Source of the DNA: Mobula hypostoma
Taxonomy: Eukaryota
Length of the DNA stretch: 64,000 nt
Direction: 5' to 3'
Assembly (NCBI RefSeq): GCF_963921235.1
Contig: NC_086107.1
Span: 106,022,001-106,086,000, forward strand
Shown here: positions 13,748-53,039 of the stretch, piece after piece
Layout of the letters: every line of letters begins with the position of its first letter
Position numbering within the stretch: the stretch's first letter is position 1
Position numbers and translations under genes: made by a program
Notes under the pieces: generated by a model
Databases searched by the model: none
What the model was told of the DNA's origin: nothing
What the model saw: the letters and a program-made list of their open reading frames with translations, nothing else

Positions 13748-13752
13748 GTGTG

Positions 13753-13797
<45 letters not shown>

Positions 13798-16700
13798 AGT
13801 GTGTGTGTGTAGATTGTGGTGTGTGTGGTGTGTGTGTGTGTGTGTGTGGTGTGTGTGTGTGGGGGGAGCACATGGAGGTTGTGTTGTGTCTGTGGGTGCT
13901 GTGTGGTGTGTGGGGGGAGGAGGACACGGGAGTGGTGTTGTGTCTGTGGGTGGTGTGTGTGTGTAGATTGTGGTGTGTGTGGTGTGTGTGTGTGTGTGTG
14001 TGTGAGAGTGTGTGTGTGTGGAGATTGTGGTGTGTGTGTGTGTGTGTGTGTGTGTGAGAGTGTGTGTGTGTGTAGATTGTGGTGTGTGTGGTGTGTGTGG
14101 GGGGAGCACAGGGGAGTGGTGTTGTGTCTGTGGGTGGTGTGTGTGTGGGGGGAGCACAGGGGAGTGGTGTTGTGTCTGTGGGTGGTGTGTGTGGGGGGGA
14201 GCACAGGGGAGTGGTGTTGTGTCTGTGGGTGGTGTGTGTGTGGGGGGAGCACAGGGGAGTGGTGTTGTGTCTGTGGGTGGTGTGTGTGTGGGGGGGAGCA
14301 CAGGGGAGTGGTATTGTGTCTGTGGGTGGTGTGTGTGTGGGGGGAGCACAGGGGAGTGGTGTTGTGTCTGTGGGTGGTGTGTGTGTGGGGGGAGCACAGG
14401 GGAGTGGTGTTGTGTCTGTGGGTGGTGTGTGTGGGGGGGAGCACAGGGGAGTGGTGTTGTGTCTGTGGGTGGTGTGTGTGTGGGGGAGCACAGGGGAGTG
14501 GTGTTGTGTCTGTGGGTGGTGTGTGTGTGGGGGGAGCACAGGGGAGTGGTGTTGTGTCTGTGGGTGGTGTGTGTGTGGGGGGAGCACAGGGGAGTGGTGT
14601 TGTGTCTGTGGGTGGTGTGTGTGTGGGGGGAGCACAGGGGAGTGGTGTTGTGTCTGTGGGTGGTGTGTGTGTGGGGGGAGCACAGGGGAGTGGTGTTGTG
14701 TCTGTGGGTGGTGTGTGTGTGGGGGGAGCACAGGGGAGTGGTGTTGTGTCTGTGGGTGGTGTGTGTGTGGGGGGAGCACATGGAGGTTGTGTTGTGTCTG
14801 TGGGTGGTGTGTGTGTGTGGGGGGAGCACATGGAGGTTGTTTTGTGTCTGTGGGGGGAGCACAGGGGAGTGGTGTTGTGTCTGTGGGTGGTGTGTGTGTG
14901 GGGGGAGCACAGGGGAGTGGTGTTGTGTCTGTGGGTGGTGGGTGTGTGGGGGGAGCACAGGGGAGTGGTGTTGTGTCTGTGGGTGGTGTGTGTGTTGGGG
15001 GAGCACAGGGGAGTGGTATTGTGTCTGTGGGTGGTGTGTGTGTGGGGGGAGCACAGGGGAGTGGTGTTGTGTCTGTGGGTGGTGTGTGTGTTGGGGGAGC
15101 ACAGGGGAGTGGTATTGTGTCTGTGGGTGGTGTGTGTGTGGGGGGAGCACAGGGGAGTGGTGTTGTGTCTGTGGGTGGTGTGTGTCTGGGGGGAGCACAG
15201 GGGAGTGGTGTTGTGTCTGTGGGTGGTGTGTGTGGGGGGGAGCACAGGGGAGTGGTGTTGTGTCTGTGGGTGGTGTGTGTGTGGGGGAGCACAGGGGTGT
15301 GGTGTTGTGTCTGTGGGTGGTGTGTGTGTGGGGGGAGCACAGGGGAGTGGTGTTGTGTCTGTGGGTGGTGTGTGTGTGGGGGGAGCACAGGGGAGTGGTG
15401 TTGTGTCTGTGGGTGGTGTGTGTGTGGGGGGAGCACAGGGGAGTGGTGTTGTGTCTGTGGGTGGTGTGTGTGTGGGGGGAGCACAGGGGAGTGGTGTTGT
15501 GTCTGTGGGTGGTGTGTGTGGGGGGGAGCACAGGGGAGTGGTGTTGTGTCTGTGGGTGGTGTGTGTGTGGGGGGAGCACAGGGGAGTGGTGTTGTGTCTG
15601 TGGGTGGTGTGTGTGGGGGGAGCACAGGGGAGTGGTGTTGTTTCTGTGGGTGGTGTGTGTGGGGGGAGCACAGGGGAGTGGTGTTGTGTCTGTGGGTGGT
15701 GTGTGTGTGGGGGGAGCACAGGGGAGTGGTGTTGTGTCTGTGGGTGGTGTGTGTGTGGGGGGAGCACATGGGAGTGGTGTTGTGTCTGTGGGTGGTGTGT
15801 GTGTGGGGGGAGCACAGGGGAGTGGTGTTGTGTCTGTGGGTGGTGTGTGTGTGGGGGGAGCACATGGGAGTGGTGTTGTGTCTGTGGGTGGTGTGTGTGT
15901 GGGGGGAGCACAGGGGAGTGGTGTTGTGTCTGTGGGTGGTGTGTGTGTGGGGGGAGCACAGGGGAGTGGTGTTGTGTCTGTGGGTGGTGTGTGTGTGGGG
16001 GGAGCACAGGGGAGTGGTGTTGTGTCTGTGGGTGGTGTGTGTGTGGGGGGAGCACAGGGGAGTGGTGTTGTGTCTGTGGGTGGTGTGTGTGTGGGGGGAG
16101 CACAGGGGAGTGGTGTTGTGTCTGTGGGTGGTGTGTGTGTGGGGGGAGCACAGGGGAGTGGTGTTGTGTCTGTGGGTGGTGTGTGTGTGGGGGGAGCACA
16201 GGGGAGTGGTGTTGTGTCTGTGGGTGGTGTGTGTGTGGGGGAGCACAGGGGAGTGGTGTTGTGTCTGTGGGTGGCGTGTGTGTGGGGGGAGCACAGGGGA
16301 GTGGTGTTGTGTCTGTGGGTGGTGTGTGTGTGGGGGGAGCACAGGGGAGTGGTGTTGTGTCTGTGGGTGGTGTGTGTGTGGGGGAGCACAGGGGAGTGGT
16401 GTTGTGTCTGTGGGTGGTGTGTGTGTGGGGGGAGCACAGGGGAGTGGTGTTGTGTCTGTGGGTGGTGTGTGTGTGGGGGGAGCACAGGGGAGTGGTGTTG
16501 TGTCTGTGGGTGGTGTGTGTGGGGGGGAGCACAGGGGAGTGGTGTTGTGTCTGTGGGTGGTGTGTGTGTGGGGGAGCACAGGGGAGTGGTGTTGTGTCTG
16601 TGGGTGGTGTGTGTGTGGGGGGAGCACAGGGGAGTGGTGTTGTGTCTGTGGGTGGTGTGTGTGTGGGGGGAGCACAGGGGAGTGGTGTTGTGTCTGTGGG

Positions 16701-17927
16701 TGGTGTGTGTGTGGGGGAGCACAGGGGAGTGGTGTTGTGTCTGTGGGTGGTGTGTGTGTGGGGGGAGCACAGGGGAGTGGTGTTGTGTCTGTGGGTGGTG
16801 TGTGTGTGGGGGGAGCACAGGGGAGTGGTGTTGTGTCTGTGGGTGGTGTGTGTGTGGGGGGAGCACAGGGGAGTGGTGTTGTGTCTGTGGGTGGTGTGTG
16901 TGTGGGGGGAGCACAGGGGAGTGGTGTTGTGTCTGTGGGTGGTGTGTGTGTGGGGGGAGCACAGGGGAGTGGTGTTGTGTCTGTGGGTGGTGTGTGTGTG
17001 GGGGGAGCACAGGGGAGTGGTGTTGTGTCTGTGGGTGGTGTGTGTGTGGGGGAGCACAGGGGAGTGGTGTTGTGTCTGTGGGTGGTGTGTGTGTGGGGGA
17101 GCACAGGGGAGTGGTGTTGTGTCTGTGGGTGGTGTGTGTGTGGGGGGAGCACAGGGGAGTGGTGTTGTGTCTGTGGGTGGTGTGTGTGTGGGGGGAGCAC
17201 AGGGGAGTGGTGTTGTGTCTGTGGGTGGTGTGTGTGGGGGGGAGCACAGGGGAGTGGTGTTGTGTCTGTGGGTGGTGTGTGTGTGGGGGGAGCACAGGGG
17301 AGTGGTGTTGTGTCTGTGGGTGGTGTGTGTGTGGGGGGAGCACAGGGGAGTGGTGTTGTGTCTGTGGGTGGTGTGTGGTGTGTGTGGGGGGAGGAGGACA
17401 TGGGAGTGGTGTTGTGTCTGTGGGTGGTGTGTGTGTGGGGGGAGCACAGGGGAGTGGTGTTGTGTCTGTGGGTGGTGTGTGTGTGGGGGGAGCACATGGA
17501 GGTTGTGTTGTGTCTGTGGGTGGTGTGTGGTGTGTGGGGGGAGGAGGACACGGGAGTGGTGTTGTGTCTGTGGGTGGTGTGTGTGTGGGGGGAGCACAGG
17601 GGAGTGGTGTTGTGTCTGTGGGTGGTGTGTGTGTGGGGGGAGCACATGGAGGTTGTGTTGTGTCTGTGGGTGGTGTGTGGTGTGTGGGGGGAGGAGGACA
17701 CGGGAGTGGTGTTGTGTCTGTGGGTGGTGTGTGTGTGGGGGGAGCACAGGGAGGTTGTGTTGTGTCTGTGGGTGGTGTGTGTGTGGGGGGAGCACAGGGA
17801 GGTTGTGTTGTGTCTGTGGGTGGTGTGTGTGTGGGGGGAGCACATGGAGGTTGTGTTGTGTCTGTGGGTGGTGTGTGTGTGGGGGGGGGAGCACATGGAG
17901 GTTGTGTTGTGTCTGTGGGTGGTGGGT
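13748..17927. repeat. G-rich minisatellite, 48-bp unit, roughly 80 copies, preceded by (GT)n
   Basis: Unit GAGCACAGGGGAGTGGTGTTGTGTCTGTGGGTGGTGTGTGTGTGGGGG. Gives 16-aa periodicity in all six ORF frames. Confidence 0.97.
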
Positions 17928-17970
17928 GGAGCTGGTAGGCCTGAGCTCTGAACCACGGCCGCTCTCCTAC

Positions 17971-18521: not shown

Positions 18522-19540
18522 CAGTACCCTCCCTCCGACAGCGAGACACTCCCTCAGTACTGTCCCTCCGACAGCGAGACACTCCCTCAGTACTGTCCCT
18601 CTGACAGTGAGACACTCCCTCCGTATCGTCCCTCCGACAGTGTGACACTCCCTCGGTACCGTCCCTCCGACAGTGTGACACTCCCTCGGTACCGTCCCTC
18701 CGACAGTGAGGCACTCCCTCGGTACCGTCCCTCCGACAGTGAGACACTCCCTCGGTACCGTCCCTCTGACAGTGAGACACTCCCTTGGTACCGTCCTCCT
18801 GACAGTGTAACACTCCCTCAGTACTGTCCCTCTGACAGTGTGACACTCCCTCAGTACTGTCCCTCCGACAGTGTGACACTCCCTCGGTACCGTCCCTCCG
18901 ACAGTGAGACACTCCCTCAGTACTGTCCCTCCGACAGTGTGACACTCCCTCGGTACCGTCCCTCTGGGTACTGTCTCTCTGACAGTGTGACACTCCCTCG
19001 GTACTGTCCCTCCGACAGTGTGGCGCCCCCTCGGTACCGTCCCCCCCGACGGTGAGGCGCCCCCTCGGTACCGTCCCCCCAACGGTGAGGCGTCCCCTTG
19101 GTACCGTCCCCCCGACGGTGAGGCGCCCCCTCTGTACCGTCCCCCCCCAACGGTGAGGCGTCCCCTCGGTACCGTCTCCCCCCCGACGGTGAGGCGCCCC
19201 CTCTGTACCGTACGGTGAGGCGTCCCCTCTGTACCGTCCCCCCCCAACGGTGAGGCGTCCCCTCACGGTGAGGCGCCCCCTCGGTACCGTCGCCCCCCCG
19301 ACGGTGAGGCGCCCCCTCTGTACCGTCCCCCCGACGGTGAGGCGTCCCCTCGGTACCGTCTGAGGCGCCCCCTCGGTACCGTCCCCCGGACAGTGAGGCG
19401 CCCCCTCGGTACCGTCCCCCCGACGGTGAGGCGCCCTCTCGGTACCGACCCCCGACGGTGAGGCGCCCCCTCGGTACCGTCCCCCCGACAGTGAGGCGCC
19501 CCCTCGGTACTGTCCCCCCCGATGGTGAGGTACTCCTTCA
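18522..19540. repeat. 33-bp minisatellite, about 30 copies, probably SINE-derived
   Basis: Unit CTCGGTACCGTCCCTCCGACAGTGTGACACTCC, with 11-aa ORF periodicity. Confidence 0.95.
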
Positions 19541-19965: not shown

Positions 19966-22827
19966 AAACAACAGGAATTCTGCAGATGCTGGAAATTCAA
20001 GCAACACACATCAAAGTTGCTGGTGAACGCAGCAGGCCAGGCAGCATCTCTAGGAAGAGGTGCAGTTGACATTTCAGGCCGAGACCCTTCGTCAGGACTA
20101 ACTGAAGGAAGAGTGAGTAAGAGATTTGAAAGTTGGAGGGGGAGGGGGAGATCCAAAATGATAGGAGAAGACAGGAGGGGGAGGGATGGAGCCGAGAGCT
20201 GGACAGGTGATAGGCAAAAGGGGATATGAGAGGATCATAGGACAGGAGGTCCGGGAAGAAAGACAAGGGGGGGGGGACCCAGAGGATGGGCAAGAGGTAT
20301 ATTCAGAGGGACAGAGGGAGAAAAAGGAGAGTGAGAGAAAGAATGTGTGTATAAAAATAAGTAACGGATGGGGTACGAGGGGGAGGTGGGGCCTAACGGA
20401 AGTTAGAGAAGTCGATGTTCATGCCATCAGGTTGGAGGCTACCTAGACGGAATATAAGGTGTTGTTCCTCCAACCTGAGTGTGGCTTCATCTTTACAGTA
20501 GAGGAGGCCGTGGATAGACATGTCAGAATGGGAATGGGATGTGGAATTAAAATGCGTGGCCACTGGGAGATCCTGCTTTCTCTGGCGGACAGAGCGTAGG
20601 TGTTCAGCAAAGCGGTCTCCCAGTCTGCGTCGGGTCTCGCCAATATATAAAAGGCCACATCGGGAGCACCGGACGCAGTATATCACCCCAGTCGACTCAC
20701 AGGTGAAGTGATGCCTCACCTGGAAGGACTGTTTGGGGCCCTGAATGGTGGTAAGGGAGGAAGTGTAAGGGCATGTGTAGCACTTGTTCCGCTTACACGG
20801 ATAAGTGCCAGGAGGGAGATCAGTGGGGAGGGATGGGGGGGACGAATGGACAAGGGAGTTGAGTAGGGAGCGATCCCTGCGGAATGCAGAGAGATGGGGG
20901 GAGGGAAAGATGTGCTTAGTGGTGGGATCCCGTTGGAGGTGGTGGAAGTTACGGAGAATAATATGTTGGACCCGGAGGCTGGTGGGGTGGTAGGTGAGGA
21001 CCAGGGGAACCCTATTCCTAGTGGGGTGGCGGGAGGATGGAGTGAGAGCAGGTGTACGTGAAATGGGGGAGATGCGTTTAAGAGCAGAGTTGATAGGGGA
21101 GGAAGGGAAGCCCCTTTCTTTAAAAAAGGAAGACATCTCCTTCGTCCTAGAATGAAAAGCCTCATCCTGAGAGCAGATGCGGCGGAGACGGAGGAATTGC
21201 AAGAGGGGGATGACGTTTTTGCAAGAGACAGGGTGAGAAGAGGAATAGTCCAGATAGCTGTGAGAGTCAGTAGGCTTATAGTAGACATCAGTGGATAAGC
21301 TGTCTCCAGAGACAGAGACAGAAAGATCTGGAAAGTGGAGGGAGGTGTCAGAAATGGACCAGGTAAACTTGAGGGCAGGGTGAAAGTTGGAGGCAAAGTT
21401 AATAAAGTCAACGAGCTCAGCATGCATGCAGGAAGCAGCGCCAATGCAGTCGTCGATGTAGCGAAGGAAAAGCGGGGGACAGATACCAGAATAGGCACGG
21501 AACATAGATTGTTCCACAAACCCAACAAAAAGGCAGGCATAGCTAGGACCCATACGGGTGCCCATAGCTACACCTTTAGTTTGGAGGAAGTGGGAGGAGC
21601 CAAAGGAGAAATTATTAAGAGTAAGGACTAATTCCGCTAGACGGAGCAGAGTGGTGGTAGAGGGGAACTGATTAGGTCTGGAATCCAAAAAGAAGCGTAG
21701 AGCTTTGAGACCTTCCTGATGGAGGATGGAAGTATATAGGGACTGGACATCCATGGTGAAAATAAAGCGGTGGGGGCCAGGGAACTTAAAATCATCGAAA
21801 AGTTTAAGAGAGTGAGAAGTGTCACGAACATAGGTCGGAAGGGATTGAACAAGGGGTGATAAAACAGTGTCGAGGTATGCAGAAACGAGTTCGGTGGGGC
21901 AGGAGCAAGCTGAGACAGGCAGGTTTGTGGATCTTGGGTAGGAGGTAGAAACGGGAAGTGCGGGGTGTGGGAACTATAAGGTTGGTAGCAGTGGATGGGA
22001 GATCCCCTGAGCGGATAAAGTCGGTGATGGTGTGGGAGACAATGGCCTGGTGCTCCTTAGTGGGGTCACGATCGAGGGGTAAATAAGAGGAGGTATCCAC
22101 GAGTTGTCGCTGTGCCTCGGCAAGGTGGAAGTCAGTACGCCAGACTACAACAGCACCACCCTTATCGGCGGGTTTAATAATAAGGTTAGGATTAGTGCGG
22201 AGGGAGTGGAGAGCAGAGTGTTCCGAAGGAGTGAGGTTGGAATGGGGACAAGGTGCGGTGAAGTCGAGACGGTTGATGTCCCGTCGGCAGTTAGCGATAA
22301 AGAGATCCAGAGCAGGCAGAAGACCAGAGCGGGAATATGAAGAAGAGGAGGGTTGAAGACGGGAGAAGGGGTCATCGGTGGGGGTGGAAGAGTCCTTGCC
22401 GAAGAAGTAGGCTCGGAGACGGAGACGGCGGAAGAAAAGTTCCGCATCGTGGCGAACACGGAACTCGCTGAGGTGTGGGCGAAGGGGGACAAACGTGAGG
22501 CCCTTACTGAGAACAGAGCGTTCTGCCTCCGACAGTTGAAGGTGGGAGGGGATGGTAAAGACCCGGCACGGATGAGAGCTGGGATCAGAGGGGGGAGGGG
22601 GGAGGCTGGGGGTGTCAATGGAGAGGGGAGGGTTGGAGTGAGAGGAAGATGGAGCCTCTGAGGGCCCAGGAGTTGACGATGGGATCTGAGGAAGACGGGG
22701 CTGCGGAGTGGTGGTGGGGGAAGGGGAGACGGGAGTCACAACAGCAGCACATAAAGACCAGGCCTGGAGTTCAAGGCTGGAGTCACAGTTGGTGGTTGCG
22801 CAGTTTTTTTTCTCCAGTTCTCCCATA
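19966..22827 (-). mobile_element. Penelope-like retroelement (Neptune-type), 5'-truncated; RT + GIY-YIG endonuclease, one frameshift
   Basis: ORFs 21822-22964 and 20393-21754 carry IKPADKGGAVVV, FYLLPKIHK, MDVQSLYTSI, GVAMGTRMGP, FLRYIDD, a CKRNKCYTC linker, and VIYCVRC...LYIGET...RFAEH. The frames are split near 21915, where the expected PGRPIVS is deleted. Confidence 0.92.
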
Positions 22828-22968
22828 GGGTTTCGGCCCGAAGCATCAACTGTACTCTTTTTCCATAGATGCTGCCTAGCCTGCTGAGTTCCTCCAGCAT
22901 TTTGTGTGTGTTGCTCGAATTTCCAGCATCTGCAGATTTTCTCTTGTTTGTGCTGAACAATCATTCAG

Positions 22969-31650: not shown

Positions 31651-31919
31651 CACCTGGAGACAAAACCCCACTGGAGAACCTCCTGTCGCACGAGATGCTG
31701 GTGTGAATCTATATCATGAAGTGAGAATTCGCCGAGATCGCGAGGAATGCGTGAACCTGCACACTAACCCCACCCAGCACAGACCGCACAATGTGGAGCT
31801 GTACAGCTGAGCTGATGCATCAGCAGATACAGTGCGTGAGATCTGGCTGAGAACTGTCCGAGAAGGAGCTCCCGATCGCCAGTGGATAAATCAGGACGCT
31901 CTGCGTGGGCTCCAGTCAC

Positions 31920-32134
31920 TCACTCTGCATCAGGAATCTCAGCCCAGTCCTTCTGGAGACAGAGGAGTCATCCACAGTTCATGTGTTCAGTCTTGTCGTC
32001 ATCGATGAAGTTCAATTTCATGGTGTAGTTGCCGCGAGATGGGAGCCCCTTGGGAGGGTCTCCCTTCGAAGACACAAACTCATACTCCTCCATCCATGGA
32101 CCGTAGCTGCCCATCATGAAAACTGCCTTTTCCA
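31920..32134 (-). pseudogene. ARHGDIB: Rho GDP-dissociation inhibitor (ARHGDIB-like) last coding exon with premature TGA
   Basis: Acceptor TCTCTCTCAG, phase 1. (V)EKAVFMMGSYGPWMEEYEFVSSKGDPPKGLPSRGNYTMKLNFIDDDKTEHMNCG*LLCLQKDWAE aligns with the RhoGDI C-terminus [20 protein letters not shown]...[22 protein letters not shown]. TGA is at 31970-31968. Lies next to ERP27 on the same strand, as in human. Confidence 0.75.
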
Positions 32135-35100
32135 CTGAGAGAGAGAGAAATAACTGACATTTCTGTAGCAACATTCACAGGGGCAGGGGCTTCACCTTGT
32201 GGAAAAGTGAACAACCAGCTAGCACATAGGAAGAATTTTTTTTTAAAACCTGCACATACTGGAAATCTGAAACAGGAACAGAAAATGCAGGAAATGCTCG
32301 GCAGGTCAGTCTGCCTCCGTGGGAAGAGGACCCGTTAGGCATCTCCACCATTTTCTGTTTCCATCTTAGCGCATTGGGAGGCTCTGCGATCAGCAGCTCA
32401 GAATGAACTGCTGGGGGAACTCAGCGGGTCGAGCAGCATCCGTAGGAGGTAAGGAATCGTCAATGTTTCAGGTAAGGGAGCAGCAGAATATGAGACCGGA
32501 TGCTCCAGCAAAGGACCCTGAGAATGGCTGAGAGGATCTTAGCAGACTCCCTACCAACCATTGGGGACATTTATCAGGAGCCCTTAGCCCTTAGTATTAT
32601 TAAGGACTGTGCTGGCGCGTTGCCAGGTGGTTAAGGCGTTGGACTAGTGATCTGAAGGTCGTGAGTTCAAGCCTCAGCTGAGGCAGCGTGTGGTGTCCTT
32701 GAGCACTTAACCACACATTGCTCCTGCACGTTTATAGCCCAGAGGCGGCGGTTGGCGCAGTATGGACAAGACAAGACAAGGATCCCACCCATCCATCCAG
32801 CATCCTCTTTGACTTTCTACCATCAGGCAGGAGACTCCGATACATAAAGACAAGAACGGTCAGGAAGGGAAGCAAGGCCATTAGGATTCTGAGCTCTCTG
32901 CCGCATCATCTTCGATGTGTCACCAGATAATCTATACTCTACCCGGCAATATTTAATTTATGCACTTTACTTTGCTTATCTGTGGATAATTCATTTGTAG
33001 ATTTAATTCTTAATTGTCTAAGTTATTGTGGGTTATGTGTACAACTGTGCTTTACATCCTGGTCTGGAGAAACTTTGCCTCATTTGGTGGTATACCTGTA
33101 GATAGTTAAATGACAATAAACTTGAGTTGAATTTGAAAACCCCGCATCAGGGGCCCGAAACATTGACAATTCCTTTCTTCCCATATTAGTCATTGCCTCC
33201 CTGGGAAAAGAAGTGCTGGTTGTCCACTCTAGCTCTGTCTCTTATCCTCTTATACACACCTCTATAAAGTCACTCTCACCCTCCTTCGCTCCAAAGAGAA
33301 AAGACCTCGCCTGACTTTCCTCACAAGACACGTTCTCTAATCCAGGCAGCATCCTTGTAAATCTCCTCTGCACCCTCTCTAAAGCTTCCAAGTCTTCCCT
33401 ATAAATGAGTGGACCAGAATGGAATGTGGTCAAACAGCAACACTTTGCACCTGTCAGGGTTAAATCCCAGGAGGAAGGGACTGATGGGATGTTCCCCTTG
33501 GAGTTAGCATGCGCTCGAGTTGAATAGTCTGTCAGGGGTTTCCAACCTGGGTCCACAGACTCCTTGCTTAATGGTATTGGTCCGTGGATAAAAAAGGCTG
33601 TGAACCCCTGGTCTTAGTCATAATAAGAGTTTAGAAGAATGAAGGGAGACCTCAACGAAGCATTTAAAAAAGGATTGACAGATTGGGTGTGGTGTGAAAT
33701 GCACTAAGGATTTCCAAGGCCTTGTGATATCGTTTGAGCATAAGGGATCCAGCTGTTTAGGTCTGAGATGGGGGAAAATGCCTTCATCGAGAGGGTGGTG
33801 ATGTGGCCCATGAAGGAATTAAACCATCGAACTGGAATGAGTCGAGACAGTGCGAGTAGACAAACCAAGTGTCTTTGCTCTTGACACCATTTTGTGTTGC
33901 AACCTCCATTTTGTGAACTGCATTTACTCAGGAATAGCTAGATCAAAGTACTTAAAAGTGGACGCAATGAGGCCTCTGCTGATAATCTGCTGAACTAGAG
34001 ATAATTCCCAACTAAGAGGCTGTTTGTGAGATGTTTCTTGGTAAGATAGAACATGCAGGTTTATGAGTAGGGCAGTCTGTGCCTGTAACATGAGGTAGGT
34101 AGCCTGAGCCTAGCAGTGATAATCCTGCTGAACTGCTCCGATTCAGGGAGAACAAAGAAAGAGGCATTAATTACGAGTCATTATTAATTACGAGTCATTA
34201 CTTGTGAGAAGGGCAATAAAATAACCTGCTATGTTCCTCCAGCACTTTGTGTGCATTCAAGATTTCCAGCATCCGCAGAATCTCTTGTGTTAATAAAATA
34301 ATTCTGTCTTGGACCAGAGCTAATGAAAAGCTGGTGCACATTAGCTGGTTAGGCCAGTGAGATTGGTACACAACAGTTTGAATTGATAAGGGAAGAGAGT
34401 AAGAAAGAGTGGCTTCGGGCGCAAAGCCATGAGAGCTCTGGAGACTAACCGTTGCAACGAAGATCCCTTGCCAGGGGTGGGTGAAGGAGGATCAATCATT
34501 TGGCCTGTGTTTGAAACTGGAGAGGTGGTCAGAGTGAGTATGGCCACAAAGGGAACAACAGCGTCTACAACTTAAATCACTGGCCTGGGGTCGACATGGT
34601 TACGTTGATATTTGTGTAGGGACAATGAAGTGCGAACGCTGGGCAACGGTAGCCTCGCGGTTAGCGCAACACTTTTGCAGCCCGGGGCGCTCCAGCGTTC
34701 AGAGTTCAATTCCGGCGCCACCTGTAAGGAGTTTGCATGTCCTCCCCATGACATCGAGGGTTTCCTCTGGGGGCTTCTTTTCCCTCTCACAGCCCAAAGC
34801 CGCAATGATTAGCAGGTTAATTGTAAATTGTCCTGTGATGAGGCTCGTGTTAAATCAGTGGGTTGTTGGGCCAAAAGGAGGCCTCTTCTGTGCTGTATCT
34901 CTAAATTAATTCATTAAGAGTTGTGTAGTGAGTTGCCTAACTGAGGTCGGTTTGAGATAGGTCAACAGGGCACCTTTGGAATTTTCTATCCCAGGGGTCT
35001 GTGGGGGCTTTGCCACTGAGTTCATTCAAAACAGAGGTTTCTGGATACAGAGCAAGCCAAGGGATATGGGAAAGGCAGGGAAACTCCCTGGATATTGATG

Positions 35101-35139
35101 ATTGGCAGAGCAGGCTCGAGGGACCTGGCTCACATTTCT

Positions 35140-35965
35140 TAGCAACACACTCAATATGTTGGAGGAACTCAGCAGGTCAGGCACTTTCTATGGAAGTGAA
35201 TAAACAGTCTATGTTTCGGGCCGAGACCCTTCTTCAGGACTGAAATGGAAGGGGGAAGATGCCAGAATGAAAAGGTGGGGAGTGGGGAAGGAGGCTAGCT
35301 GGAAGGTGATGGGTGAAGCCAGGTGGCTGGGAAAGGTCAAGGGCTGGAGAAGAAGGAATCTGATAGGAGGGGAGAGTAGACCACAGGAGAAAGGGAAAGA
35401 GAAGGGGACCCGGGGGAAGAAATAGGCAGGTGAGAAGAGGTCAGGGTGTGGAATAGAGAAAGTGGAGAGGGGGGTGGGAAATTTTTTACTGGAAGGGGAA
35501 ATCAATATTTGTGCCATCGGTTTGAACGCTGTCCAGATGGAATACAAGGTGTTGCTCCTAAGGGCGGCCTCATCTTGGCACAAGTCAAAATGGGAATTGG
35601 TGTTGGAATTAAAATGTCCGGCCACCTGGAAGTTCTGCTTGTGGCGGGTGGATCTGAGGTACTCGACAAAACAGTCCCCCAATTTACGACGGGTCTCACC
35701 AATGTACAGGAGGCCGCAGTGGGAGCACCGGAAGCAATAGACGACCCCAGAAGATTCGAAGGTGAAGTGTTGCCTCACCCAGAAGGACTGTTTGGGTCCC
35801 TGAATGGAGGTGTACGGTCAGGTGTAGCACTTAGGCCATTTGCAAGGAAAAGTGCTTGGAGGGAGACCAGCAGGGAGGGACGAACAGACAAGGGAATCGT
35901 GGAGGGAGCAATCCCCGCAGAAAGCAGAGAGGGGTAGGGAGGTAAAGATATGTTTAGTGGTAGGA
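35140..35965 (-). mobile_element. Older Penelope-like fragment (GIY-YIG)
   Basis: ORF 35209-35778 reads HFTFESSGVVYCFRCSHCGLLYIGETRRKLGDCF. Confidence 0.85.
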
Positions 35966-36473
35966 TATCTTAGATTGTTTTCTTACAATCTTATGATAAG
36001 TACAGGAACACCAGGAAAATATTCAATGAGAGCTGTATCAGTCTAGAAGTCATAAACCAAGGTTAATAACACACTGTTAATGTCCTCCAAGTGGACCACA
36101 ACCCTGTAGTAGGGTTTGGAGGCTTGTGTGCCTCAATGACCGGGAGAGCTCTGTTGGCTGGAGTCAGGGCTTTGGCTCTTGGTAGGGTCACCAATGCAAA
36201 ACAGGTCAAAGGGTAGAGGTCAGACTAAGAGTGGTCCACCGGTCTTCCAGGTTCAGGGGTTCAGCTCAGGGCTGACAACCCAGACTGATCAAACAAATTT
36301 GTTACGGAAACAGCGATGAAGAATCCTTCTACATCTGAGCGTGACAGTATTCCTCAGTCTCCACCCGGGACTCGCATGACTGACAGTAGTGAAAATGGAG
36401 AGGAAGCTTCTGACACGGTGAAGGAAGCCAGAGATGGAGAACATTCACTGCTGCCGTAAACAGCAGCGGCATT

Positions 36474-37263
36474 ACATAGAAACATAGAAACATAGAAAAT
36501 AGGTGCAGGAGTAGGCCATTCAGCCCTTCGAACCTGCACCGCCATTTATTATGATCATGGCTGATCATCCAACTCAGAACCCCGCCCCAGCCTTCCCTCC
36601 ATACCCCCTGATCCCCGTAGCCACAAGGACCATATCTAACTCACTCTTAAATATAGCCAATGAACTGGCCTCAACTGTTTCCTGTGGCAGGGAATTCCAC
36701 AGATTCACCACTCTCTGTGTGAAGAAGTTTTTCCTAATCTCGGTCCTAAAAGGCTTCCCCTTTATCCTCAAACTGTGACCCCTTGTTCTGGACTTCCCCA
36801 ACATCGGGAACAATCTTCCTGCATCTAGCCTGTCCAATCCCTTTAGGATTTTACACGTTTCAATCAGATCCCCCCTCAATCTTCTAAATTCCAACGAGTA
36901 CAAGCCCAGTTCATCCAGTCTTTCTTCATATGAAAGTCCTGCCATCCCAGGAATCAATCTGGTGAACCTTCTGTGTACTCCCTCTATGGCAAGGATGTCT
37001 TTCCTCAGATTAGGGGACCAAAACTGCACACAATACTCCAGGTGTGGTCTCACCAAGGCCTTGTACAACTGCAGTAGTACCTCCCTGCTCCTGTACTCGA
37101 ATCCTCTCGCTATAAATGCCAGCATACCATTCGCCTTTTTCACCGCCTGCTGTACCTGCATGCCCACTTTCAATGACTGGTGTATAACGACACCTAGGTC
37201 TCGTTGCACCTCCCCTTTTCCTAATCGGCCACCATTCAGATAATAATCTGTTTTCCTATTTTC
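36474..37263 (-). mobile_element. CR1 LINE 3' fragment (young)
   Basis: Intact RT C-terminus LYKALVRPHLEYCVQFWSP...FFTQRVVNLWNSLP with an (ATAGAAAC)n tail. Confidence 0.92.
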
Positions 37264-39809
37264 CTATTACGGGCTGTAACTCACAGTTAATATGACTGAA
37301 TGAACCGAGGCCCTATTTATATCCATAAACCCACGAACACTACCTCACTAATTTGCTCTCTTTTTGCACTACTTTTTTAAAAACGTATTTCTTATTGTAG
37401 CTGATAGTGCTTTTTAAATATATGGCACTGTGCTGGGGGCGCAAAACAACAAATTTCATGACATATGTCATTTTTCTCATTGCTACCGTCAGGAATGAGG
37501 TACAGAAGCCTGAAGGCACACACTCAATGATTCAAGGACACCTTCTTCCCCTCTGATTTCTGAATGGACATTGAACCCACGAACACTACCTGACTTTTAA
37601 AAAATTATTTACGTTTTTGCCTACTATTTTTAATTTAACCAAGTAATATACATTTTTTCTATATTTATCGTGTATTGCATTGTACTCCTGCCACTAAGTT
37701 AACAAATTTCACAACATATGCCGGTGATATTAAACCTGATTCTGATAATGGTCCTGAGTCAGCTCTTGCTTGTCACATGATTTTACTGTAACGCTTTGCT
37801 ACGGCTGCGCCTTGGGGAAAAGCAGTGAACTCAAGCCAATTCTCTCGTGCCATCCCTAGACCAACAGCTGCTGCCTTGTTCCCATCACTGACTGGTCCCG
37901 CACTGTGCTTTCATATATGCTTGAGGTGGGGCCCCAGTCTGCCTGGCTTCACCTCCGCCTACGTCTGGCTCCTGAGCTAAAAGATCGGATTGAAATAGAC
38001 AGCGCATCACCCCAGGGATCTCAGGCGAAAGTGGGGCTGCTTATCCACCTGGGCGATCCACCCTGCCCACCTCTCTTCTTAATGCTTTTAATGCCCCTGA
38101 CACATTGACCCCTCTGTTGCACATACAGTATGAACTGTGTCTCCACTGCAGTGCACCCACTGACCCTGAGAAGATGCTGAAAGCTATATTTTTAGAGCGG
38201 GGGTTCCCAAATTGCCTTTATGCCATGGACCCCTACCGTTAACCGAGGGGTCTGTGCACCCCAGGTTGGGAGCTCCTGGCATAGAGGGACCTCTGTAGAA
38301 CAGAGGGAACCAGGAGCATAAGCATGTAGAAAGTCACGCAGCATCTATAGAGGAAGTAAACTGATGAAGGGTGTTGAGGCAGATGATACGTCTCTACCAA
38401 AGGAGGAACAAGGTGCTCCTTCCCTCCACTAGCCTGCAGGTCACCCTTGGGCAAGATGTGGCACCTGCTTTGCCCCTCGATCAGGGTCATGTGAAACCAT
38501 GGGAGCAGATGGTGGATGGCCATATGAGCAGCTGGTGCAGTATCACAAGTCCTGGTTACACGAGCACTGATGCCAGACAGACAATCTCTGAAGAGGGTTG
38601 ATAATGGCTGGGGGTGGGGGGGTCACCCACCTTGTAAAGGCACTGCCCAGAAGAAGACAATGGCGAACCAAATCTGTAGAAAAATTTGCCAAGAACAATC
38701 ATGGTCACCACGTCATTCGACACGGCACATAATGATGATGTCATATGACACAGCACAGAATGATGATGTCATACAACACAGCACACAAGGAATGAATGAA
38801 AACTGATGAAAGGTCTCAACCCGAAACATCGACTGTTTACTTATTTCCACAGATGCTGACTGACTTGCTGAGAATTCTGTGTGTGTTGTTCAAGATCTCA
38901 GGATCTGCAGAAACTCCTGTGTTTAGAATAATTTGGTTCAATTACAGTAAGAAGGCGTTTGGAGGCCAGCACTAACTTACTGTTCTGAAAGGCCTGTGGG
39001 TCCCTAAAAATGGCATCACAAGCAAGCAGGGAGGTGAAGGAGGCTTCCGGCCCACTGGCCTTCATCAGTCAGGGCACTGGGTCGAAGGGTGAGGACGTTA
39101 TGTCGCAGTTGTGCAAGACGTTGGTGAGACCACAGTAGGAGTATTTTTTCAGTTTTGGCTACCCTTTTGGATTCACAGAGCCATTGAGCCACACAGCAGT
39201 GATACAGCCCTTTGGCCCAACTAACTGATGCTTACCAAACGTCCACACAGCTCAGCTAGTACCAGTTTCCTGTGTTCAACCCATTTCCCTCTAAGCCCCA
39301 CCCCTCCATGTACAGTACTGTCACAAAAGTCTTAGGCACGTGTATACAGCTAGGGTGCCCAAGACTTTTGCACAGTCCTGTAGTAATTTTATGTATCGCC
39401 CTGTACTGCTGTCATACAGAAAAAAACAATTTCATGACATATGAGTGATGATAAACCTGATTCTGATCTGGGTCTCTATTGTGGACTGAGAGTGGGAAGG
39501 GGACAGGGAGAGGGGAATCATGGCTGGGAAACGGGGAAAGGAGAGGGGAAGGGAGAATGAAAGGAGCAGGAAGCATCAGAGAGACATTCTGTAACAATCA
39601 ATTGTTTGGAATGAAATGACTTGCCTGATGTCTCCGGGCTGGGTGTGTCTGCATCCACACCAGTCCCCCACCCCTGTCACTCCTTCTTTGCCACCTGTCC
39701 CACATCTTTTACTCCCACCAGATTTACAAACTCACTCTCCACTCCATGTTAACTAATACAGTACTGTTCAAAAGTCTTAGGCACCCTAACTATATACTGT
39801 ATATGTAGC

Positions 39810-40780
39810 AAGGAGAAGGGAGGGGGGTGGTGGGAGCGAGGAGAGGGGAGGAGGGTGCAGGGAGCAAGGGGAGAGGGGACGGGGAGAGGGGAAGGCCCCT
39901 CCCCTGCCCTTCACCCTCTCCCTCGCCCCTTCCCCCCTCCTCTCCCCACTCTCCACCCAGTCCAACCTCCTCCCCACTCCCTGACCCCTCTCCACCCCCT
40001 CCTCTCCTTGCTCCCTGCATCCTCCCCCTCCCGTCGCTCCCTGCAACCTCACCCCTCCCCTCCCCTCTCCTCACTCCCTCCACCCTCCTCTTCCTCCCAC
40101 CACCCAGCCCCCTTCATCCCTCTCCCTCCTTTCACAGCCCCCTCACCTCTCCCCTCTCCCTCCCTCCTTGCCCCTTTCCCTTCTTCGTCCTTGTCCCTCT
40201 CCCACATTGCCCCCTCTCCTCTCTCTCTCTACCTCTCCCTTCTCCCCCTCCTCTCCCTCCCTCTTCCCCCTCCTCTCCCTCCCTCCTCCTCCCTGTCATC
40301 TCCCTCCCTCTTCCTCCTCTCCCCTCCTCTCCCTTCCTCTTCCTCCCTCCTCTTCCTTCCTCTCCCCCTCCTCTCCCTTCCTCTTCCCCCTCCTCTTCCT
40401 TCCTCTCCCTCCCTCTTCCCCCTCACCCCCTCTTCCCCTCTCCCCTCCTCCCCTCTCCTCCCCTCCCTTCCCCCTCCTCCCCTCTCTCCTCCCCCTCTCC
40501 TCTCCCTCCCTCCTCCCTCTCCTTCCCTCCCTCCTCCCCCTCCCTCTTCTCTCCCTCCCCTCCTTCTCCCTCCCTCCTTCTCTCTTCTCCTCTCTCCCTT
40601 TCTCCTCTCCTCTTTCCCTTCCTTCTCCCCTCCTCTGTCTCTCCTTCTCCTCTCTTCTCATTCCCTTCCTCCTTCTCCCCTCTCCTCATTCCTTCCCTCC
40701 TTCTCCCCCTCCTCATTCCCTCCCTTCCTTCCCTCTCTCCCTCCCTCCTCCCTCTTTCTCTCCTCTCTCCCTCCTCCATC
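39810..40780. repeat. Low-complexity polypyrimidine (C/T) tract, preceded by a short purine block
   Basis: About 900 bp almost exclusively C/T. Confidence 0.95.
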
Positions 40781-41606
40781 TATCAGAAATTCACATGTAA
40801 ATATGTACCAATATCTATCAGCTATAAAAGCCCCCACAGTACGTGACCATATGAAACTACTGAGCCCTCGTCTCTATCCAGGTCAACAAAACAGAGGCCA
40901 AAAATCACTTGATGTTTAACTTCTGAAAGTTGGCTCTTGCGATAGTTCCAGCTCACAAAAAAGAGGGAGTGATGCATCTACTGCCGACTGGCTGTCAGCC
41001 TTCTCTCTGTTTTCTTCTCACCTCCAGACACAAACACCTCCGCAGTCCCGAGAGCCTCTGCCCCCTCGTACCTCAGGAGAAAGTTGGGCTGTAGGTCAGA
41101 TCCACCAGAACGGGCAAGTTTTCAGAACAATGTTGTATGGAGCAGGCTTATATTTTGTCAAGCTTAACAGTGATCCAAATGAGCTGTTTTAGATGATTAA
41201 AGGATTTATGTTAACAAGGAAACAAGAAAGTACCATCCAACCCCATTCTGCCATTCAACTGATGTGGTTAATTCTAACCTAGCTTCAAGTACTCATAACG
41301 CCTCTCATTAGCAAAGTATTTGACAGGAATTTTTATTTTATTCATTTTAAAAGACTTGGGTATTGCTGACAAGACCACCATTGATCGTCCAAACCTACTC
41401 TTCCTTGAGAACATGGAGGTGACCCACCAATTTGAACCACTTCAGACTGGTTGAGTTCCCTGGTTTGGAACCAGCGATGTTGAAGGAGCAGTCCATAAAT
41501 GTCCACTCACAAGCAAGAGAAGATCGGCAGAATCTGGAAATCCAAGCAACCAGAGAAAACCTGCAGGATCTGGAAATACAAGTAACCGGAGAAAATTTGC
41601 AGATGT

Positions 41607-42390
41607 AAACACGAGGAATTCTGCAGATGCTGGAAATTCAAGCAACACACATCAAAGTTGCTGGTGAACGCAGCAGGCCAGGCAGCATCTCTAGGAAGAG
41701 GTACAGTCGACTTTTCGTGCCGAGATCCTTCGTCAGGACTAACTGAAGGAAGAGTGAGTAAGGGATTTGAAAGTGGGAGGGGGAGGGGGAGATCCAAAAT
41801 GATAGGAGAAGACAGGAGGGGGAGGGATGGAGCCAAGAGCTGGACAGGTGATTGGCAAAAGGGATATGAGAGGATCCTGGGACAGGAGGCCCAGGGAGAA
41901 GGAAAAGGGGGAGGGGGGGAAAAAGCCCAGAGGATGGGCAAGGGGTATAGTCAGAGGGACAGAGGGAGAAAAAGGAGAGAGAGAGAAAGAATGTGTGTAT
42001 ATAAATAAATAATGGATGGGGTACGAGGGGGAGGTGGGGCATTAGCAGAAATTAGAGAAGTCAATGTTCATGCCATCAGGTTGGAGGCTACCCAGACGGA
42101 ATATAAGGTGTTGTTCCTCCAACCTGAGTGTGGCTTCATCTTTACAATAGAGGAGGCCGTGGATAGACATATCAGAATGGGAATGGGATGTGGAATTAAA
42201 ATGTGTGGCCACTGGGAGATCCTGCTTTCTCTGGCGGACAGAGCATTGCAGATGTTGGAAATCCAGGAAACAAGGGAAAAACTGCAGATGCTAAGGCAGT
42301 CCTGGCTGAAGGGTCTCGGCCCGAAACGTGGACTGTTTACTCTTTTCCATAGATGCTGGCTGGCCTGCTGAGTTCCTCCAGCATTTTGTG
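41607..42390 (-). mobile_element. Penelope-like 3' fragment plus adjacent opposite-orientation PLE-derived piece
   Basis: High similarity to 19966-20590. GIY-YIG tail ending in the MNIDFSNF frame. Degenerate hammerhead motifs near 41706-41740 and 42298-42335. Confidence 0.85.
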
Positions 42391-42794
42391 TGGGTTCCAT
42401 AAATGCCCATGTCAGGATAGAGAAGGGCAATCAGCAGATTGTGGCATTCATATATGCCTCTTGTGGTGGCATATGTACAGATCATGGTGCTCACAGATGC
42501 CTCCTGCCCGTGACCTTCTTGGTGGCACAGGACTTGGCTTTGGGAGTTGTTATCAGAGCAGCCTGGGCAGGTAACTGCAGTGTGATTTTGTCGACAGTAG
42601 AGGCTGTGGCCACTGAGTACGAGAGGAAATGGATATCCCGGGTGGTGAGTGGGGTACCTTTTAAGTGGGCTACTTTGTCCTGGATGGAGTGTCTTGAGTG
42701 GGGCTGAGGCTGCACTCATCCAGGCAAGCGGACTGTATTCCATTACCACCTTGACTTGTGTCCTGTATTGCTAGTTCCAGGATACTAGAGGGGC

Positions 42795-43222
42795 AGCAGA
42801 GTAGCACAGGGCGGTAGAAGGGAGAAACTCTCCCTGCCATGAACCTCCAAGCGCCGCCAACTCGCCAATGCAGCACCATTGGAAGCACCCGACCGCAGCG
42901 GACTCTGAGTCCGTCCGAAAACTTTGAGCCTCCGACCAGCCCCTCCAACACAGCCTCTCCGAGCACCATCCTCTGCCGAGCGCTTCGACCCTGCCCCGGC
43001 CGCCGAGCAACAAGCAAAGCCGAGGACTCGGGGCCTTCTCCTCCGGAGATTCCGGATCACACAGTAGCAGCAGCAGCGAAGCAGGCATTTCAGAAGTTTC
43101 TCCAGATGTTCCTCCGTGCTCTCACGTCCGTCTCCATCAAATCAGGATTGTGCACGGCACCCTACTTGACAAATAACAGACATCACCACCAGAGTGGCCG
43201 CTGTGAGCCGCGTCACGCCGCC
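42795..43222 (-). mobile_element. Young CpG-rich interspersed repeat (non-autonomous LINE-like); inverted copy at 46832-47490
   Basis: Near-identical reverse-complement translations (MNLQAP...) at 42839 and 47204. Confidence 0.7.
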
Positions 43223-45209
43223 ATCTTCTCCTCCCGCCTGCATTAAATTTAATCTTAGAAGGTTAAAAGATTTGTCTTCTTTTGCACATTGGTTGTCAGT
43301 CTTTGTTGATGTATAGTTTTTCATCAATTTTAATTGTATTTCTTTATTTTTCTGTAAATACCCGCAAGAAAACAAATTTGAGGGAAGTATATGATAACAT
43401 ATACGTAATTAGATGATAAATTTTACTTTGATACCAAAGTTGTGAATTCCACAGACCCAGGTATATTCTACAAGTCCCAGCTCATCCTCGCACCCTTAGC
43501 CCAAAAAGCAAACTGCTGCAGGTTCCAGCACCTGTCTCCTGAAGAACACATGCTCCTGGCTAGATTGGTCAAAGCCAATAGAATGATTGACCAGACTGCC
43601 CCACCATCACTCATTCGATCCTGAACCCTGCCCCAGGCACTCTAGGATTAATGGGTCTTTCACCACCCAGCAATGACTTAAATCGGTGGTTCCTGTAGAA
43701 ATCCCAGACAGAAAATTTAACCCTTATCTCTGTTTACTGACAAAAAAATTCTGCTTTTCTTTAAAGCTCTTCTAAAAAGGGAGAGTGGGTGGAGTGGAAA
43801 CACAAGCTTGTCTGTGTGTGTGTGTTTTTTTAAATATATAAATGTTTTGGTTTGCAGTTTTATTTCTCTCTGATGTCTTTTCTTATTTATGTTCCGTCTG
43901 TTTCCTGAACCTGTGTGCCTATGACATTGCTGTAAGCAAATTTGTCCATTGTACCTGTACCTCACCATACTTGTGAACATAGTCATACACCAACACAGCA
44001 TGGATACAGGCCTTCAACCCAACTAGTCGATGCCAAACATCGAACCCACCCATCTCGAACCAATTTCTTGCGTTCAGCCCAATATCCCTCCATGTACCTG
44101 AGCAAGTGCTTCTTAACTGGCTCTATTTCCTCAACCACTTCTTCTGGCAGCTCGTTCCACGCACTCACCATCCCCTGTGTGAGAAAATCACACATGGAGA
44201 TTTACAAGGATGTTGCCAGGACTAGAGGCTGGTAATCTGGCACAACTAAATGCTGGAGGAACTCAACACTAATGAAGGGTCTTGACCTAAAGAGATAACT
44301 GCTCATTCCCCTCCATACATGCTGCCTTACCCGCTGAGTTTCTCCAGCATTTTGCACATGGTACCTTCTTTTATTTTTTGGTATTGGAGGTGGAAAATGA
44401 ATCCCTTGTCCATCATGATTTGTCATGTGGCAAAACATCAGGATTATAACTAATGAGAGCCGGAAAACACAGCAGGGATCCTTGTAATTCTGGGCATCAG
44501 CCCCAAGAAGTGAAGTCAGATCCCAGAAAGAGAAAAAGTTGCTGTTTAAGCATCTCGCTGCGACCAAGCAACTGGTAAAGGGTGTGATTATGTGACTCAG
44601 GCATGGAGATCTTGAATCGGGCAGACTCTGGTCCAAATTAACTGCAGTCTCATTTTCTGTCAATACCCATAACAATGGCCCTCAGGTAGACAAAGATGCA
44701 TAGTTCTACCCTAAAAGCTATCTGATAAAATGAGTTATCAAAGGCAGTGGGAGCATTGGTTTCTTGCTGGTGAATAGTCCAAGGTAACAATGCCATTGTA
44801 ATAACCATCTTCCCATTTTCTGTCTGTAAACATCCAGATCTTGTTGTCCCAATTCCATCACAATTATGTTGTACCACGGTGCATTCAACTAGCCAGAATA
44901 ATAGTTCAGACCAGACTAGATGGGCTGAAGAGACTTTTCTGTGTTGTAGTGTGCTGTGCCTCTATCCTTACAGCTTGTAGGTACAACCAACTTTCTAATG
45001 CAAATCACCAGTCAAAGAAATCTTAAACCTATTACTGACTCTCAAGTTACCTGTGAGATATATGACAATTGGTTTCGCTGCATCTTCACAGAGAAGAGTT
45101 ATTCAAGTCACAGTCACACTAAGTGCATTGGGATCTAGAAGAGGAATCTCAATGTCAGAAATAAAAGATTTTTCTTGGAAATGGATCATTAAATCATATA
45201 GGGTCCAAG

Positions 45210-45907
45210 TGTAAGGGGGTTTCGACTTTTATGTTACTGTGGAGGCTAATTAAAATGGCGTCTTTGTCATGTTAATCTGGGGAATGCGGCTTTGTTGTGT
45301 TAAACGCTGAGAAAGTTTGCGCTAGCAGCTTGTTTTTGCTTTAGAGTGTGATAAGAGAGTGCTACTAACCAATTGGGATAGTTGTTATGGTTTTGGTGTA
45401 TTTGAAGATACTGTATGCGCGGGGTTTTGGGTCAGAAGGCAGGAGAGCGAGACAGAGGATGGACGAGGTGCTGTGATGTCCGCTAACGGGGTCGGACCCC
45501 GAGGAGGGCGTTCGGCGAGGAGACGGAGACGGACTCGTGTGAAACATCTGATCGACCACCGTTGTTGGTCCCAGGCGGCCGGTCGAGGTGGTCCGAGGGG
45601 TCGCAGGGTGAAGAAGAAGGTCCTTGAGCTCCAATGGTTTTTGTGCACGAAGGGATTGAACTTTGATAAGTGTGGCGCCTTTTATTTTCCTTTTATATTT
45701 CATTCTCTTTTAATTATATAGTTCCAGTAATATCTATAAACTGTATATCATTTAATTGCATCTGGTGTATTGTCTGTTATTCGGGCGGGTTGGGGTACGT
45801 CACACAGCATCCACACAAATGAACTATCCAGTTTGCCGGGGCCGAGGCTGTTTCCCTAGACGACAGCGAGCCGAGCGACCCTGAGGGTGGCCGGGGGGGG
45901 GGCCACA
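45210..45907. mobile_element. Probable solo LTR
   Basis: TGTAAG...CCACA termini with flanks CAAG / AAAG. CpG-rich. Shares TGTGTG(G/A)ATGCTGTGTG in opposite orientation with the repeat at about 3430-4190. Confidence 0.55.
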
Positions 45908-47589
45908 AAAGGTATAATCCATCTCTCCCCCTGTATGCATGTCACCATGTCACACAGCCCCATCCTCTGCCTCCTCAGCACCGTCTGACCACTTTATTCC
46001 CTTGAATAGAAACTCCTACAAAAAGTAGTGAATACAGCCGGGTAAAGCCTTACCCGGGTACATCACCAGTAAAGCCTTCCCCACTATTGAGCACATCTAC
46101 ATGAAATCCTGTCGCAGCAAAGCAGCATCCATCATCATGGGCCCCTTCCACCCAGGTACACACTCTCTTCTCACTGCTACCATCAGGAGGAAGGTACAAG
46201 AGCCTCAGGACTCACACCGCCAAGTTCAGGAACAGTTACCACCCCTCAATCATCAAAGGAGATAGTGTCACTCGACTTGCCCCATCATCGAAATGTTCCC
46301 ACAATCAGTGGGCTCACTTTCAAGGGCTCTTCATCGCATGTTCTCAATATTTATTATTTATTGTTATTGTTTCTTATTTTATGCAGGAAAAAAATATGAT
46401 CGAAGTGACTTTGACTGTGGGATAATTGCGGTGCCAGACAGGGTGGTTTGAGTATCTCAGAAACTGACGATCTCCTGGGATTTTTGTGCACAACAGTCTC
46501 TGGATTTTACAAAGGAAGAGAAAACATCCAGTGGGCAGTAGTTCTGTGGGCAAAAACGCCTTTTTAATGAGAGAGGTCAGAGGAGATTGGCCAGACTAAT
46601 TCAAGCTGACAAGAGGGTGACAGTAACTGGGATAGCTGCGTTTTACAACAGTGCTGTGCAGAACAACATCTCTGAATGCACATTTTGAACCTTGAGGTGG
46701 ATGGCCACAGCAGCAGAAGACCACGTACATACACTCTATGGCCACTTTATCACAGAAGGTACCTAATGAAGTGGCCACTGAGTACATATATTGCACAAAA
46801 ATTTAAAAAAAGTCATAAGTACTTTAAAATACCAGCTCACAGCGGCCACTCCGGTGGTGATGTCTGTTATTTGTCCAGTAGGGTGCCGTGCACAATCCTG
46901 ATTTGATGGAGACGGACGTGAGAGTGCGGAGGAACATCTGGTGAAACTTCTGAAATGCCTGTTTCACTGCTGCTGCTACTGTGTGGTCCAGAATCTCCGG
47001 AGGGGAAGGCCCCGAGTCCTCGGCTTTGCTTGTTGCTTGGCGGCCGGGGCAGGGTCGAAGTGCTCGGCAGAGGATGGTGCTCGGAGAGGCTGTGTCGGAG
47101 GGGCTGGTCGGAAGCTCGAAGTTTCCAGACGGACTCAGAGTCCGCTGCGGTTGGGTGCTTCCAATGGTGCTGCAACGGCAAGTTTGCGGCGCTTGGAGGT
47201 TCATGGCAGGGAGAGTTTTTCTTCCTTCTACCGTCTGCGTGAGATGATGGGGCTATTGGGACTTTGAGACTTTTTTTTTTACCGTGCCCATGGTCTGCTC
47301 TTTATCAAATTACGGTATTGCTTTGCATTGTTTTAACTATATGTTATAATTATGTGGTTTTGTCAGTTTTCGTCTTGGTTTGTCCTGTGTTTCTTATGAT
47401 ATAATTCTGGAAGAACGTTGTATCATTTTTTAATGCACACATTTCTAAATGACAATAAACGAGGACTGAGTGTCCTCATAATCTAATCTAAAAATATTTT
47501 AATAGCACCACTGCCACTTTTGTGGGCCGCTGTGGTGATACAACCTTTCATTGTCTGGGGGGCTTCCCCACCAGACTCAGCCCTATATT

Positions 47590-52970: not shown

Positions 52971-53039
52971 TCGTATGAATTGGGAGCAGATTTAGCCACT
53001 CAGCCCATCGAATCCATTCTGTCATGATAAATACTCTGG

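Follow-up and report, generated by a model that had tools for sequence, protein, structure and literature searches.

The 64,000-nucleotide stretch of Mobula hypostoma DNA analysed here (the window) most probably holds an old, unprocessed unitary pseudogene that stands at the ARHGDIB position, upstream of ERP27, and is shared by the rays of the stingray lineage. The locus lies at the ancestral position, with introns and splice sites kept, and carries disabling lesions (two stops, a lost start and missing exons), and the gene is intact in outgroups. Judged from its sequence, no RhoGDI protein can be made from the locus, and we infer that no functional copy exists elsewhere in the genome. The sequence-only reading of this DNA had proposed a unitary pseudogene specific to one lineage; the unitary pseudogene stands, but the loss is wider than one species, since a protein model from Hypanus sabinus is without the same exons. 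The features of the locus and its neighbours, in the order of transcription, are the following.

59538 to 63815, minus strand: upstream neighbour, a dynein light chain gene of DNAL4 type, which we take to be DNAL4; its last two coding exons (63815-63732 and 59702-59538) are open and match Pfam Dynein_light
about 57171-57118, minus strand: remnant of an alternative 5' exon, the start exon of the long isoform models of Pristis and Heptranchias
45135 to 57117, minus strand: repeat-rich gap in which the N-terminal regulatory-arm exon is expected; no trace
45051 to 45134, minus strand: what is left of an 84-nt RhoGDI coding exon in phase 1-1, its AG/GT ends preserved and its frame interrupted at 45105-45103 by the second TGA
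32135 to 45050, minus strand: repeat-rich gap in which two middle coding exons are expected (26 and 21 codons in Pristis); no credible trace
31920 to 32134, minus strand: decayed last coding exon of the RhoGDI gene, with its phase-1 acceptor preserved, a premature TGA at 31970-31968 and the natural stop at 31922-31920
2514 to 25262, minus strand: downstream gene of ERP27 type, six exons with AG/GT ends, 270 open codons, no CXXC
25262-25127, 18062-17971, 10918-10781, 10089-9970, 5647-5522 and 2711-2514, minus strand: the six exons of the ERP27-type gene

The last exon was described in the sequence-only reading as a RhoGDI exon that opens with a phase-1 acceptor and is interrupted by a TGA at a conserved Trp, with homology continuing beyond the stop, and this description is borne out. 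On the minus strand a polypyrimidine tract and the AG at 32136-32135 precede an exon start at 32134 in phase 1 (TG/GAA...), and the frame reads EKAVFMMGSYGP...HMNCG, then the TGA at 31970-31968 followed by C, then LLCLQKDWAEIPDAE and the natural stop. Read through the TGA, the exon matches positions 133-193 of the 193 in the Pfam Rho_GDI family (PF02115) with 57.8 bits against a cut-off of 26.5 (E 1.4e-15), which places it in the family, and the part before the stop gives E 1.1e-13. Frameshift-tolerant alignment of the exon scores 209, compared with 31-38 for plus-strand and reversed controls. The premature TGA occupies the position of Trp194 of human RhoGDI-alpha, in an alignment of query residues 2-64 with residues 141-203 of the 204-aa chain; Trp194 and the strand that follows it presumably line the prenyl pocket.

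The remnant of the last exon is 62% identical to Pristis over 71 aa. Among its first 65 codons, 33 differ from goat RhoGDI-beta, and these differences divide into 12 that are common to the intact Pristis protein, 2 that are common to an intact shark protein, and 19 that are unseen in intact orthologues. The residues held in common with Pristis include the W>C change in W-E-W, MMGSY and L-C-L, and the C-terminal extension of the remnant occurs in Pristis too. Because many of the altered residues, the Cys included, are shared with an intact protein, they are older than the decay. The invariant columns of the exon are changed at 4 of 31 places in the remnant and at 7 of 31 in the Hypanus model. 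The changes from conserved residues that had been listed earlier, such as TPVEEAP to SSKGDPP, are real, but reading all of them as decay does not hold, since the S, K and D of SSKGDPP occur in an intact sawfish or shark orthologue; by these sequence comparisons the list is a mixture of decay and fast protein evolution in batoids.

The same reading had found no convincing intact exons in the interval before DNAL4, and there is indeed no intact set, but the remnants at 45134-45051 and about 57171-57118 had been missed. The 84-nt exon, which was revealed through the Hypanus sabinus model, is 71% identical to Pristis (E 1.2e-9) and reaches a frameshift-tolerant score of 84 against controls of up to 34; its TGA at 45105-45103, in a TGA-A context, stands where Hypanus and the sharks have Arg and Pristis has Gln. 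The 5' exon remnant at 57118-57171 has CTG where the long isoforms of Pristis and Heptranchias have their start Met, and it matches the Pristis long isoform at 14/18 residues (E 1.3e-6), with an HMM score of 42.9 bits against 5.0 for the best control. This remnant is nearer to Pristis (14/18) than are the coding remnants (62-71%), and, 2.4 kb beyond the stop of DNAL4, it may have been kept as a promoter or an untranslated element.

The searches for the missing exons used the nearest intact orthologues as queries in a window that is free of any N, with the proteins cut at exon junctions, two of which are seen in the window and the rest of which were taken from the human gene as we understand it. 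In 45135-58600 the regulatory-arm exon did not rise above controls by HMM, tblastn, elasmobranch HMMs or frameshift-tolerant alignment (best score by the last method 29.0, controls 29-39). The two middle exons likewise stayed undetected by HMM, tblastn and elasmobranch HMMs. The best frameshift-tolerant score for the 26-codon middle exon was 35.2 (controls 26-33), in repeat-like sequence, and that for the 21-codon middle exon was 24.0 (controls 26-30). Candidates for the 26-codon exon at about 37376-37429, 38967-39002 and 43741-43770, with scores near or within those of the controls, were rejected, as was the 35.2 match, which lies marginally over the controls. A long low-complexity repeat is present between the last exon and the exon at 45.1 kb.

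What survives covers 99 of the 206 Pristis residues. The immunoglobulin-like domain is incomplete, with the two middle exons, or 47 beta-sandwich codons, missing and stops at 45105-45103 and 31970-31968. The absence of three of the five core coding exons is a heavier lesion than the TGA that first drew attention to the locus. Both surviving coding exons keep canonical splice sites, which counts against the pseudogene reading.

The state of the last exon in related genomes was examined in short-read contigs compared over 31700-32480, from 4 of 24 listed runs. The sequence-only reading had called for inspection of reads at 31968, and a contig from a run that may be the source sample (X1, depth 7.4) bears the TGA; it is identical to the window at 781/781 bases, so that a long-read error is unlikely. 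As the single sample of the matching organism, X1 bears on consensus error rather than on polymorphism at the TGA. The contigs of two other organisms, X5 and X6, have TGG at this site; X6 spans the exon in part (to 32032 and from 32098) and was used for the TGG only, and the X5 contig (organism B) runs across the whole exon, with 6 nt deleted at the place where the Hypanus model is 2 residues short. Run X21 gives no cover over the exon, which says nothing about expression.

The changes that separate the exon in the window from that in X5 are nonsynonymous in 12 cases (157 sites) and synonymous in 2 (38 sites). The resulting pN/pS of 1.45 rests on these 14 changes and was computed without transition correction and with the five codons at the deletion omitted, from the 40 of 65 differences that were listed, all at or below 32218. 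Values of omega of 0.1, 0.2 and 0.3 are rejected by this test (p 2e-5, 0.002 and 0.018), and a value of 0.5 is not (p 0.12), so that purifying selection on the exon is not detected in these 14 changes. Among the same 40 of 65 differences, the exon has 18/209 and its flanks 22/280 (Fisher p 0.87). Since the exon is neutral relative to X5, which has TGG, it was already drifting by the time the two lineages parted; the TGA arose afterwards, in one of them only. The TGA is not conserved, for Hypanus, Pristis and the sharks have Trp at this site as X5 and X6 have TGG, and it did not kill the gene: it is a late, lineage-restricted change in a gene that was already dead.

These data bear directly on two explanations that the sequence-only reading had offered as alternatives. 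It is very unlikely that the TGA is an assembly error, or a polymorphism, in an otherwise working gene. The TGG in the contigs of two other organisms would suit such an explanation, and with one sample only of the matching organism the TGA could be polymorphic, but it is present in the short-read contig X1, and the second stop, the lost start and the three missing exons stand whatever the base; moreover, the X5 copy, which has TGG, shows a 6-nt deletion and a neutral rate. The suggestion that leaky readthrough or recoding of UGA-C yields a functional or shortened RhoGDI has next to no likelihood. UGA followed by C is a leaky stop context, such a C follows the stop at 31970-31968, and the phase of the 84-nt exon fits that of the last exon. 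Against this, the upstream stop has an A after it (TGA-A), the locus lacks a start codon as well as the regulatory arm and the 47 beta-sandwich codons, and the 16 codons to either side of the TGA hold 9 of the 12 counted nonsynonymous differences to X5, with no conserved recoding context evident. With a stop that lacks conservation, in a frame already interrupted further upstream, readthrough is irrelevant to the fate of the locus.

Intact orthologues, full-length, open and 200-206 aa long, are found in five sharks and in the sawfish Pristis. The best 120 of 2014 profile matches were examined, with Pristis last among those 120, and five named cartilaginous fish were found among them: Hypanus, Heptranchias, Hemiscyllium, Pristiophorus and Pristis. 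Two Chiloscyllium species and the long isoforms came from the members of the protein clusters. The elasmobranch proteins, named RhoGDI 2-like, comprise the following.

Pristis pectinata XP_051898905.1 / XP_051898903.1, and Heptranchias perlo XP_067830413.1
Hemiscyllium ocellatum XP_060705121.1, two Chiloscyllium species, and Pristiophorus japonicus

The remnant forms one clade with these proteins, being identical to Pristis at 62/97 positions and to the sharks at 49-51/92, and it has the C-terminal extension and the W>C change in common with Pristis; unlike these full-length, open proteins, the window copy is without three core exons and carries two stops. The intact Pristis protein itself lacks several residues that are found across the family (W>C in W-E-W, RG>CG), and the batoid branch that bears it is long, which suggests relaxation before gene loss.

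The model from Hypanus sabinus (XP_059809166.1, 145 aa), the protein nearest to the remnant, holds only the two exons that survive in the window, is 74/95 identical to them, and is without the same exons; it differs in having no stop at either TGA site and in a 2-residue deletion. It aligns to 45940-45052 and 32218-31923 of the window, and parts of it match intronic sequence here. Its N-terminus (about 45940) and its middle (about 32200) were considered as real exons and rejected, since they match window intron and no RhoGDI. Although annotated as protein-coding, it is, from these alignments, probably a mis-called pseudogene patched with intron sequence, and this stingray protein model should be flagged accordingly as a likely pseudogene. 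An insertion of ~700 bp at about 45205-45910 appears to split sequence that is contiguous in the Hypanus model, and would thus be younger than the split from Hypanus.

If the gene had moved, as a duplicate or retrocopy, the remnant would be the abandoned parent of a working copy and the gene would not be lost. This is improbable, although the evidence covers those best 120 profile matches, of which Pristis is itself the last. At a likeness of at least 80%, the exon lies in a single contig both in X1, of which 96% of the run was read, and in X5, at low contig depth; no intact protein from the stingray lineage is among those best 120 matches; searches with the remnant and with the Hypanus model gave only the broken Hypanus model (1/3 and 1/16 candidates), and the next matches after it are at most 58% identical, in a set with one protein per 50% cluster, in which a copy could hide.

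The identification of the lost gene as RhoGDI-beta rests on synteny, and the trees support a beta+gamma placement rather than beta alone. In a tree of 34 rows, with fewer than half of the columns filled in either remnant row, the remnant and Hypanus group together (100/98) as sister to Pristis (99/95) within an elasmobranch clade (100/100). In a second tree, of 27 intact rows and four outgroups, from which the remnants and the long rows of skate and dog were left out, the elasmobranch clade falls within beta+gamma (100) and joins beta with a support of 58; the AU test rejects neither a placement with gamma (p-AU 0.345) nor one with alpha (0.195). The remnant is no closer to human beta (44/92 identical) than to alpha (40-43) or gamma (39-46). 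The sequence-only reading would have been overturned by a grouping with ARHGDIA or ARHGDIG, and on this point the best tree joins beta, but the alternatives with alpha and gamma stand unrejected.

The neighbouring genes give a clearer indication. The last RhoGDI exon lies 6.7 kb from the start of the ERP27-type gene, on the same strand, and this gene has a signal-like exon followed by b-b' exons; of five exons searched, two have ERp27 as their best PDB match, two have PDI and one has none. The last exon of this gene, the one with the ER-retention signal, was not found; it may lie in 1-2513 or beyond the window edge. The position of the locus between DNAL4 and an open ERP27-type gene points to ARHGDIB. 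According to PMC5722932, the human RhoGDIs each have a PDI partner of their own, which for beta is ERP27 (PDIA8), and this agrees with the earlier statement that ERP27 lies downstream of ARHGDIB in human. By the same source the human pair is 2.9 kb apart; the two loci are alike in having the RhoGDI directly beside the ERP27-type gene on the same strand, and they differ in that the window locus is non-coding, with 44/92 residues identical.

It is unlikely, on this evidence, that the locus is dead but not a beta orthologue, the elasmobranch clade being instead a fourth vertebrate RhoGDI lineage, or one derived from gamma, that sits beside an ERP27-like gene. The separate elasmobranch clade has a long stem and 100% support, the AU test does not tell the alpha, beta and gamma groupings apart, and the long isoforms carry a 5' coding extension that is conserved between Heptranchias and Pristis. 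Against these points, the neighbour is a b-b' PDI without CXXC, which is the ERP27 architecture, every human RhoGDI has a separate PDI partner (PMC5722932), the best tree already joins the elasmobranch clade with beta, and a separate protein with a gamma-type N-terminus exists in a skate (Rhinoraja longicauda XP_078274487.1). A fourth lineage with its own alternative N-terminal exon and an ERP27-type partner, accelerated in batoids and extinct in the stingray-lineage rays, so that the locus would be its fossil, is a correspondingly slim prospect; if true, a family in which three members are recognised would gain another, and true beta would be missing from all cartilaginous fish sampled here.

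The skate protein, which is named RhoGDI 2-like, is 163 aa long, its model includes no regulatory-arm exon, and no branch in the tree is longer than its own (0.75); it may be a RhoGDI-gamma that is diverging fast or decaying. The RhoGDI 2-like proteins of Erpetoichthys and Polypterus are full-length and stand apart from the alpha and gamma of these fish, in a weakly placed position in the tree, so that beta, reported as lost in ray-finned fish, may have disappeared only after the bichirs had split off.

Several repeats lie in and around these genes. An ERP27 intron holds a 4.1-kb array of a 48-nt unit (13750-17930, with about 64 copies at 96% in the main block), which gives spurious open frames of 1300-1500 codons, and a 33-nt minisatellite follows it at 18524-19530. 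In ERP27 intron 1, at about 20400-22900 on the minus strand, there is a degraded Penelope-like element whose Pfam RVT_1 and GIY-YIG matches are below cut-off, and fragments of the Penelope-like family occur at about 35200-35900, 41700-42300 and 49200-49900.

With the locus read as a dead RhoGDI-beta, the following history may be proposed. Sharks and sawfish retain an intact gene. In batoids it would already have diverged fast, with the W>C change in W-E-W and the C-terminal extension, before it was lost. Inactivation would have come after the split from the sawfishes and before the split of this ray from the Hypanus-like lineage. Three of the five core coding exons, the whole regulatory arm included, would have gone either as the cause of inactivation or as its consequence. 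The surviving exons would then have drifted neutrally and gathered private lesions, the two TGAs and the ATG>CTG change here and the 6-nt deletion in the other lineage, and Rho chaperoning is presumably carried out by RhoGDI-alpha and gamma. The mechanism is ordinary gene loss, and other fish are known to do without this gene. Its biological effect was probably small: the mouse knockout of RhoGDI2, which is expressed mainly in lymphoid and myeloid cells, is described as mild in PMC5104321.

The ERP27/RhoGDI-beta pair has been called poorly conserved, and PDI/RhoGDI pairs have been proposed to be held together by functional linkage, in PMC5722932; an ERP27 partner that stays open while its RhoGDI dies is a natural counter-example to the linkage proposed there. 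No report of a loss of RhoGDI-beta in rays was found in the literature searched, most subscription papers being outside it. According to the legend of Suppl. Fig. S2 of PMC5722932, RhoGDI-beta is lost in ray-finned fish and in Callorhinchus milii, the sole cartilaginous fish in that study, and sharks are now seen to keep a gene that this one holocephalan genome suggested was lost. The locus is probably another, separate case of RhoGDI-beta being lost among fishes; it can be dated to between the sawfishes and the stingrays, and the branches next to it carry relatives in which the gene is intact. Relative to the losses given in PMC5722932, the ray locus is alike in being a loss of RhoGDI-beta in a fish lineage, and it would differ in leaving a visible remnant and in being nested among relatives that keep the gene.
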